A stretch of 1,276 nt of DNA from Escherichia coli (GTDB taxonomy: Bacteria > Pseudomonadota > Gammaproteobacteria > Enterobacterales > Enterobacteriaceae): the NCBI RefSeq assembly GCF_003334255.1, contig NZ_QOWU01000167.1. One strand, 5' to 3'. A program made the translations under genes and the position numbers. The notes beneath the pieces were generated by a model. The model searched no databases. It was not told the origin of the DNA and saw only the letters and a list, made by a program, of their open reading frames with translations. Each line of letters begins with the position of its first letter. Position 1 is the first letter of the stretch. Of the stretch, positions 51-965 are shown piece after piece.

Positions 51-359
51 CTAAATCAGTAAGTTGGCAGCATCACCCACTTCAACAAGTTCGCCATAGC
101 CAGTTAGCGCGCCATTTACACGTATTTCTATATTTTTCTCAGATTCAGAAAGCAGAGATATTATTCTTTTTGCACAGAGTTCGTCTATTTCATATAGATT
201 CATTATTTTCTTACCAAGAACAAACTCAATTTTTACAGGCAAGTCTTCAAAACTATTAATCATCTGATCGTCATTTTCATCATAAATCTCACTCTCGTTT
301 TTTTTGATATCAAAATCATCTGTTTCAAAATCTTCCTCGTACTCAAAATGATCAGCCAT
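51..359 (-). CDS. sctQ: Predicted internally initiated C-terminal product SctQ-C (102 aa, acidic linker plus SpoA2 domain)
   Basis: In-frame ATG at 359..357 (Met203) is preceded by GAGGAG at 371..366 with a 6-nt spacer; the SD is embedded in codons P-E-E-L-K. The position matches the internal start reported for SctQ homologues (about codon 203 in SpaO, as I recall). Product would be MADHFEYEEDFETDDFDIKKNESEIYDENDDQMINSFEDLPVKIEFVL...NLLI. Confidence 0.5.
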   Translation of the reverse strand: MADHFEYEEDFETDDFDIKKNESEIYDENDDQMINSFEDLPVKIEFVLGKKIMNLYEIDELCAKRIISLLSESEKNIEIRVNGALTGYGELVEVGDAANLLI

Positions 360-965
360 TTTTAACTCCTCTGGATAAATTAAATCACAAATTTTTGTAT
401 TATAAATAACCGCATAAGCCAAATTATTTGAGATTAATAAAACATCACCAACTTCAATATCAACAAGACTTCTGTAACATGTTTTACTAAATCCAATTAC
501 AAAATGAATGGAGCAATATAACGATTTTTTGTCTAACGCTGGAGCGTTTCCGTATTGGCAGACTGTGACTTTATCTAACCAAAGATTCAATTCCCCTGTC
601 CATATTCTTATTAGTGGTTGAGCAGGGCTCAATACTCCATCAAATACTTTACCTACGCGCAAACGATTATATTTTAGTTCAGGATGCTTTAGATTTAACG
701 GGGAACTGGATAAACTGAGGCATTCCCCTATTAACCTTTCCGTTTCTGGCATTAAAGCCATCCCAGCGAGCTCAGATGAAATTAAGGGAAATATTTCTCC
801 AAGCAATACCCATCCAGACCAGCTGCCACTCTCTTCTGCTATCGGTAGCCATTTAGCACTAAATTCGGGCATTAATAATGCAACATCTTCGCCATTTTCT
901 TTCCAATTTTGAAAAGTGGTTTCAAACGTATGAGTGTTTCGATTTACTTTCCTCAGACCGAACAT
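51..965 (-). CDS. sctQ: Type III secretion sorting-platform / cytoplasmic ring protein, SctQ family (SpaO/Spa33/YscQ-like), complete
   Basis: Complete ORF from the six-frame track: ATG at 965..963, TAG at 53..51. An in-frame TGA lies 9 nt upstream of the ATG, so the N-terminus cannot extend further. The C-terminal ~65 aa (LPVKIEFVLGKK...NIEIRVNGALTGYGELVEVGDAANLLI) has the FliN-like SpoA signature, and an upstream SpoA-like block (SIHFVIGFSKTCYRSLVDIEVGDVLLI) matches the two-SpoA architecture of SctQ. Length (304 aa) and motif layout resemble Salmonella SpaO as I remember it (LPVKLEFVL; FVIGSS...IGDVLLI). Homology is from memory, not a search. Confidence 0.85.
   Translation of the reverse strand: MFGLRKVNRNTHTFETTFQNWKENGEDVALLMPEFSAKWLPIAEESGSWSGWVLLGEIFPLISSELAGMALMPETERLIGECLSLSSSPLNLKHPELKYNRLRVGKVFDGVLSPAQPLIRIWTGELNLWLDKVTVCQYGNAPALDKKSLYCSIHFVIGFSKTCYRSLVDIEVGDVLLISNNLAYAVIYNTKICDLIYPEELKMADHFEYEEDFETDDFDIKKNESEIYDENDDQMINSFEDLPVKIEFVLGKKIMNLYEIDELCAKRIISLLSESEKNIEIRVNGALTGYGELVEVGDAANLLI
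366..372 (-). promoter_or_regulatory. Internal ribosome-binding site (AGAGGAG) for the SctQ-C start
   Basis: Minus-strand sequence aGAGGAGttaaaaATG: consensus-strength SD 6 nt upstream of ATG 359..357, inside the sctQ reading frame. Confidence 0.5.

Follow-up and report, generated by a model that had tools for sequence, protein, structure and literature searches.

An internal Shine-Dalgarno sequence and in-frame ATG in an IS1-truncated epaO gene of Escherichia coli: a probable ETT2 counterpart of the sctQ internal start

Internal initiation within sctQ, giving rise to a C-terminal fragment of the protein, is an established feature of YscQ, SpaO, SsaQ, Spa33, and HrcQ (SpaO: PMC4443714, PMC6358110; Spa33: PMC6925163; SsaQ and HrcQ: PMC8553256). 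The spaO gene of Salmonella SPI-1 encodes SpaO(L), of 303 aa, and SpaO(S), of 101 aa, the latter starting at GTG codon 203 behind a purine-rich Shine-Dalgarno (SD) sequence, GAAGGGGGAATTATTGTG, located 6-7 nt upstream of the start. In Shigella, Spa33-C (~102 aa) starts at the GTG of Val192, in the linker between the SPOA1 and SPOA2 domains, and Spa33-CC is also produced, from Met237. The same linker carries the start of YscQ-C in Yersinia, at Met218 (ATG). SsaQ (SPI-2) and HrcQ (Xanthomonas), which belong to distant T3SS families, display the same arrangement of two products from one gene, with the short form stabilising the long form or acting as its chaperone (PMC8553256). In vitro, the short form binds full-length SctQ 1:2. 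It is an accessory stabiliser in Salmonella, but essential in both Yersinia and Shigella (PMC6358110). The view that the short SctQ is needed for sorting-platform assembly, which was put forward in the initial annotation of the DNA described here, is too general, as in Salmonella SPI-1 and SPI-2 the short form is only accessory (PMC6358110, PMC8553256). [quoted passage not shown] We found no paper reporting an internal start or a short product for EpaO; one ETT2 paper mentions the two products of SpaO when discussing epaO stop codons (PMC7058095).

The stretch of DNA analysed in full, hereafter the window, is 1,276 nt long, and its sole long ORF, according to the ORF list, lies on the minus strand (965..51, 304 aa). 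This ORF was identified as sctQ, as initially annotated: two full-length family HMMs matched it above their curated cutoffs, namely NCBIfam NF006018 (447.7 bits versus a cutoff of 223) and TIGR02551, SpaO_YscQ (176.9 bits versus 100.8). The Pfam FliMN_C match comprised residues 239-298 of the ORF and model positions 3-62 of 73 only. Residues ~230-300 were matched by the solved SPOA2 domains of SpaO, Spa33, and YscQ-C, and matches to FliN in the PDB and NCBIfam covered EpaO residues 235-299. By megablast, the DNA corresponds to the E. coli ETT2 island, in which the gene is named epaO, with 98-99.8% identity to thousands of chromosomes. The functionality of ETT2 is debated.

The gene order spaN(sctP)-sctQ-sctR-sctS-sctT was found in full in the allelic and orthologous loci L002, L010, and L011; in the window, a 3' remnant of eivJ lies upstream of sctQ and IS1 lies downstream, in place of sctR-U. 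Upstream, only ~128 nt of eivJ/spaN, the needle-length determinant, are left (965..1092, minus strand). PGAP annotates this remnant as SpaN/EivJ "missing N-terminus", and its homology to the intact locus L011 ends at position 1092. It is joined to the 3'-terminal part of a glycoside-hydrolase family 15 (GH15; ygeQ-like) gene (1097..1199, minus strand; stop TAG at 1099..1097), identified from the annotation of L002 and L019 and by sequence comparison, and the remaining upstream eiv genes are deleted from the fragment. The primary sctQ ATG (965..963) overlaps the eivJ stop codon (TAATG), and the same overlap was observed in the intact loci L010 and L011.

The window proved to consist of a 1,122-bp fragment flanked by an IS1 end on either side (1..77 and 1200..1276), both of which had been missed initially. 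The first consists of the first 77 nt of an IS1 on the minus strand, in the same orientation as sctQ, whose 3' end it truncates; the inverted repeat GGTGATGCTGCCAACTTACTGAT (IRL) begins at position 77 on the minus strand. The second corresponds to the last 77 nt of another IS1, also on the minus strand and in the same orientation, within the upstream GH15-family gene, and its IRR, GGTAATGACTCCAACTTATTGAT, begins at position 1200 on the plus strand. Both junctions thus carry IS1 terminal inverted repeats, with 100% matches to annotated IS1A/IS1B copies. Moreover, IS1A is annotated in L002 at the same upstream junction, and the GH15 sequence is uninterrupted in L019 and L003.

Comparison with the allele L002, which has no 3' IS1, together with the ORF list and the NCBIfam and Pfam matches, delimited the native part of sctQ/epaO to codons 1-296 (78..965, minus strand). 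The native tail in L002 reads ELVEV-DDKLGVEIHSWLSGHNNVK followed by the stop codon, for a total of 315 aa; this is the common form, with 4,734 member sequences in its 90%-identity cluster, fragments and variants included. In the window, the IS1 terminal repeat GGTGATGCTGCCAACTTACTGATTTAG starts at position 77, the first base of codon 297, and supplies codons 297-304 (GDAANLLI) and a TAG stop (51..77, minus strand), as deduced from the position of the repeat and from the native allele. Residues 297-315, the last 19, are replaced by these 8 IS1-encoded residues, and the short ORF of the window comprises Met203-Val296 plus GDAANLLI, that is, 102 aa. The two products initially proposed, a 304-aa SctQ and a 102-aa SctQ-C, are arithmetically right in length, but their last 8 codons and stop are IS1 sequence; the native lengths are 315 aa for EpaO and 113 aa for EpaO-C.

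The truncation deletes the last β-strand of SPOA2 in the AlphaFold model (residues 299-307), which contains the motif LGVEI, and the Gly of this motif is equivalent to G289 of SpaO. The latter residue is needed for OrgB binding, which is destabilised by the G289D substitution (PMC6358110). The C-terminal SPOA2 domain (FliMN_C) is incomplete in the window allele and complete in the native L002; likewise, the short product of the window has no complete SPOA2 able to dimerise, whereas the native 113-aa EpaO-C would have one.

Equivalent alleles are annotated as pseudogenes by RefSeq/PGAP. The exact 304-aa chimera is publicly deposited as a regular "YscQ/HrcQ family" protein of E. coli, but only on contigs of ≤1,359 bp. 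Of 5,426 complete E. coli genomes, none contained the left IS1 junction as one exact piece, and only 1-2 contained the right one. From the length of exactly 77 nt of both IS1 ends, and from the restriction of the chimera to such short contigs, the window would seem to be a complete draft-assembly contig between two IS1 copies, of the type produced by an assembler with k=77, and not an arbitrary slice of a genome. We also observed that, in all eiv-deleted E. coli looked at, PGAP starts a "frameshifted" sctQ pseudogene at the out-of-frame ATG at position 1005. No indel was found in codons 1-296 on comparison with the 315-aa cluster (4,734 sequences), and the frameshift flag may be an annotation artefact arising from this upstream start.

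Within sctQ, the minus strand reads TAT CCA GAG GAG TTA AAA ATG GCT GAT. The SD motif GAGGAG, recognised in the sequence, by pattern search, and by its duplex with the anti-SD, coincides with the codons of Glu199-Glu200 (366..371, minus strand); it is followed by a 6-nt spacer, TTAAAA (365..360), and by an ATG (357..359, minus strand) that is in frame with the ORF 965..51 and corresponds to codon 203 (965 - 3 × 202 = 359). Its designation as the predicted start of SctQ-C (EpaO-C) draws on the sequence, the alignment, the Met enrichment, and the AlphaFold layout. The motif, its spacing of 6 nt, and the in-frame ATG at codon 203 (359..357) are as first annotated; the range given then, 357-372, includes the right site and one base too many, motif and ATG together occupying 357..371.

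Motifs of the form GAGGAG-N4-9-ATG were expected 0.05 times per window on both strands and were observed twice, a count reached in 1 out of 200 shuffles. The other occurrence, GAGGAG-N7-ATG at 1018..1003 on the minus strand, lies inside the eivJ remnant and is unrelated to the sctQ internal start; the 27-codon ORF that it opens follows neither the eivJ nor the sctQ frame. Codon 203 exhibited the best anti-SD pairing (-8.6 kcal/mol, versus -6.4 kcal/mol for the runner-up) of the 14 ATG, GTG, and TTG codons that lie in frame inside the native gene. The surrounding mRNA (81 nt) was less structured than 192 of 200 shuffles (z = +1.37), and the site would be accessible because of this weak structure. 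The choice of GAG-GAG codons was also considered as independent evidence for selection and was rejected as weak: with GAA and GAG used 22 and 10 times in the gene, respectively, GAG-GAG has a chance of ~0.1 given Glu-Glu.

In the AlphaFold model (109-sequence alignment, pLDDT 85.7), SPOA1 strands span residues 150-194, the last one being 190-194, and are followed by a disordered acidic linker (200-229, with a pLDDT below 50 for the segment) and by SPOA2 (243-307). Met203 comes directly after the final SPOA1 strand, where the disordered linker begins, that is, at the boundary between the first SPOA domain and the acidic linker where it had initially been placed. The features of SctQ internal initiation are present in this gene: an in-frame initiator in the SPOA1-SPOA2 linker, an SD at functional spacing, and a position homologous to mapped starts. 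The SD and ATG203 are real, and by routine inference from homology they would be the ETT2 (EpaO) counterpart of the internal start of the sctQ family.

The E. coli alleles are ~98-99% identical and provide no independent support, and we therefore collected 13 divergent sctQ genes for which DNA was available, 16-90% identical to EpaO. These comprised two ETT2 alleles, genes from E. albertii, Providencia, a Salmonella plasmid, and an E. coli plasmid, and three metagenomic genes, as well as SPI-1 spaO, Shigella spa33, a gene from an E. marmotae plasmid, and Yersinia yscQ. DNA of distant homologues was taken from a plasmid collection and from exact-protein matches. Salmonella SpaO ranked outside the top 150 representatives, and wild-type spaO DNA was found by an exact match to the reconstructed wild-type protein. 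Every in-frame internal ATG, GTG, and TTG was then scored for anti-SD pairing, blind to known sites.

The top-scoring internal start was located in the SPOA1-SPOA2 linker, between -6 and +7 alignment columns from Met203, in 12 of the 13 genes; in the exception, from E. marmotae, the linker site ranked second, by 0.1 kcal/mol. The narrower interval of -8 to +2 columns, which was set after a first scan of 9 genes, contained the site in 11 of the 13 genes, these being partly non-independent (two ETT2 alleles and two near-identical plasmid genes), and none of 200,000 simulations reached that number. The published starts of SpaO (GTG203), Spa33 (GTG192), and YscQ (ATG218) were all recovered by the blind scan, and the short products predicted across the scanned genes ranged from 90 to 113 aa. 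Where Val or Leu occupied the start position, the codon was always GTG or TTG, although, in the rest of each gene, they account for only 4-28% of synonymous codons; this comparison is partly circular, the sites having been picked as start codons.

We also examined 126 full-length representatives, each from a separate 50%-identity cluster. Position 203 was the most Met-enriched site of the protein, with a Met within ±3 columns in 75% of representatives (n = 126), the median being 8% and the 95th percentile 29%. In column 203 itself, Met was counted 56 times, Val 22 times, and Ile 17 times (n = 126), with Glu or Asp at -3 and Gly at -2. This Glu/Asp-Gly pattern, encoded by GAR-GGN codons, is the coding shadow of an SD. 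Among ETT2-like homologues, E199 and E200 were invariant down to 30% identity. Few roles other than that of an initiator would readily explain why a Met is conserved where a disordered linker begins. The suggestion of the initial annotation that the arrangement looks selected rather than accidental is thus borne out, both by the linker site being top-scoring in 12 of 13 genes and by the Met peak; the alignment with SpaO, Spa33, and YscQ that it had proposed as a check places their internal starts at conserved positions (+1, -6, and +2 to +7 columns, respectively).

A second, weaker Met peak was observed at alignment positions 252-254 (EpaO Met255; window 201..203), with Met in 34% of representatives versus a median of 8%. 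It aligns with Met237 of Spa33, the reported start of the ~7 kDa Spa33-CC (PMC6925163).

That the motif arose by chance, an AT-rich gene rich in Glu codons happening to place GAGGAG before an in-frame Met without selection, is extremely improbable. Such a reading would gain from the ~10% chance of GAG-GAG given Glu-Glu under the codon usage of the gene, and from the evidently meaningless GAGGAG-N7-ATG at 1018..1003 in the same window. However, it would have to account for the best SD-plus-start combination falling at the same linker position in 12 of 13 divergent sctQ genes, for position 203 being the most Met-enriched among 126 representatives, and for the coincidence with three experimentally mapped starts; it is effectively refuted by the scan and the Met enrichment. 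Alternatively, the E-E/G-x-M pattern could be maintained for reasons of the protein, such as a contact at the end of SPOA1, the SD-like RNA being a by-product and the short form arising by proteolysis. The conservation of E199, E200, and M203 at the amino-acid level would fit, and some SpaO-C has been reported to persist after mutation of the start codon, which was attributed to proteolysis (PMC8553256). Yet the segment that contains these residues is predicted to be disordered (pLDDT below 50) and shows no other conservation of side chains; the start residue varies between Met, Val, and Leu, while its codon is always an initiator (GTG or TTG for Val and Leu); and the short products of SpaO, Spa33, and YscQ are lost when their start codons are mutated. 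We consider this explanation very unlikely.

Regarding expression of the copy in the window, the native operon promoter is gone, and a promoter scan of the window yielded matches at background level (6 found versus 3.9 ± 1.6 expected). No terminator-like sites were found in the window. At the joint of the eiv deletion (1092..1099), the eivJ remnant lies ~5 nt from the TAG of the GH15 (ygeQ-like) gene, on the same strand, and for this reason sctQ-U may be read through from the GH15-family gene in eiv-deleted strains. The truncated copy might still be expressed by read-through from the upstream IS1 or GH15 sequence, giving a 102-aa chimeric EpaO-C with a residual or dominant-negative effect on SctQ/FliN-type assemblies. 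Consistent with this, both IS1 copies and the GH15 fragment are oriented as sctQ, no terminator-like site intervenes in the window, the SD and ATG are intact in an open mRNA, and phenotypes have been reported for degenerate ETT2 loci (PMC7058095). Nevertheless, we regard it as unlikely, as the product is missing the last SPOA2 strand (299-307), including the Gly equivalent to the SpaO residue G289 involved in OrgB binding (PMC6358110), and Pfam covers only model positions 3-62 of 73; moreover, the promoter-like matches do not exceed background and no adjacent partner genes are left. It is highly improbable that decayed ETT2 loci express a stand-alone or truncated EpaO-C from the SD-ATG through IS1/GH15 read-through, with cross-talk to LEE EscQ or to flagellar FliM/FliN. 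If true, such cross-talk would help explain the phenotypes of "non-functional" ETT2 remnants.

Several observations were made on other alleles. In L019 (E. coli OkiPb01684, NZ_AP042519.1, ~1800-2580), a separate IS1 is inserted in sctQ, with a 9-bp target duplication, CCAGAGGAG, located exactly on the internal SD (corresponding to window 366..374). Its downstream copy reads IS1-IRR|CCAGAGGAGTTAAAAATG... into an intact SD-ATG-EpaO-C ORF, followed by sctR/S/T. In effect, L019 shows sctQ naturally divided at the internal start, and is the cleanest candidate for stand-alone expression of EpaO-C. In many complete E. coli genomes (HUE1, T16R, and others), an IS1 oriented as in the window lies 24 bp farther inside epaO (L001, ~3060-3080, versus window 78..101), and other strains have IS1 in sctS or in the middle of sctQ; ETT2 is repeatedly eroded by IS1. 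In some Salmonella assemblies (L012 and L013, ~1483-1503), the GGGGG run constituting the internal SD of spaO is one G short, which results in a spaO frameshift, and the 101-aa SpaO(S) is called as a separate gene (P0171, 37 member sequences). Either a sequencing error or a true homopolymer variant could be responsible. Finally, L003 (CABHOW010000183.1), from a MAG labelled "uncultured Flavihumibacter sp.", is 98-99% identical to E. coli ETT2, and its positions 1..20 are adapter-like (TGTGTATAAGAGACAG); it is probably a case of contamination or mis-binning in the MAG.

Overall, we favour the reading, with a probability of roughly 80%, that the SD and ATG203 are the EpaO version of the sctQ internal initiation site, fossilised by IS1 in the window. 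The site itself is strong and accessible, occupies the homologous position, and is conserved across the family; it is very probably functional in intact epaO. In an intact gene, by analogy with the mapped systems, ribosomes would start both at codon 1, giving the 315-aa EpaO, and at codon 203, giving a 113-aa EpaO-C composed of the acidic linker and SPOA2. EpaO-C would dimerise and bind or stabilise full-length EpaO, as do the short forms of SpaO, Spa33, and YscQ (1:2 in those systems). In the window, insertion of IS1 after codon 296 has removed the final SPOA2 β-strand, and the second IS1 and an older deletion have removed the upstream eiv genes. The copy is a pseudogene in which a genuine internal start survives as a fossil, and its 304-aa and 102-aa products are IS1 artefacts.

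More generally, these computational results indicate that an SD and start in the SPOA1-SPOA2 linker come close to a family-wide rule for sctQ, with the strongest Met signal in the protein alignment. They can be used in the annotation of sctQ genes and in the design of epaO constructs, for which GAG GAG to GAA GAA provides a silent SD knockout. For annotation, the message is that the "normal" 304-aa protein of the databases is an IS1 chimera of a pseudogene. The open questions of the field are unchanged by this result.

Compared with the described systems, EpaO is closest to SpaO, which is also an SctQ of a SPI-1-like T3SS. The two proteins are 30% identical over their full length in the 13-gene alignment, and the short-form region of SpaO is 43% identical to that of the ETT2 allele P0002. 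Their starts occupy the same alignment position (+1 column), the shared codon number 203 being a coincidence; the short product consists of the linker and SPOA2 in both cases, and the gene order spaN/eivJ, sctQ, sctR is the same. Unlike SpaO, which has a GTG start and an SD scored at -10.8 kcal/mol, EpaO combines an ATG with a consensus GAGGAG, and 12 extra residues in its acidic linker give a longer short form (113 versus 101 aa); the copy in the window is truncated by IS1. Spa33 differs more from EpaO (19% identity), with an offset of -6 columns, a weak SD (-5.5 kcal/mol), a Spa33-C that is essential for secretion, and the additional Spa33-CC. YscQ, from the Ysc T3SS family, is 16% identical to EpaO and has a weaker SD (-5.9 kcal/mol), an offset of +2 to +7 columns by alignment, and an essential YscQ-C; the structure of its SPOA2 dimer (3UEP) matches the C-terminus of EpaO. 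On the basis of its sequence, the predicted EpaO site adds ETT2 to the systems with an internal-start SctQ, with an SD and start codon (GAGGAG, ATG) closer to consensus than those of most of its relatives.
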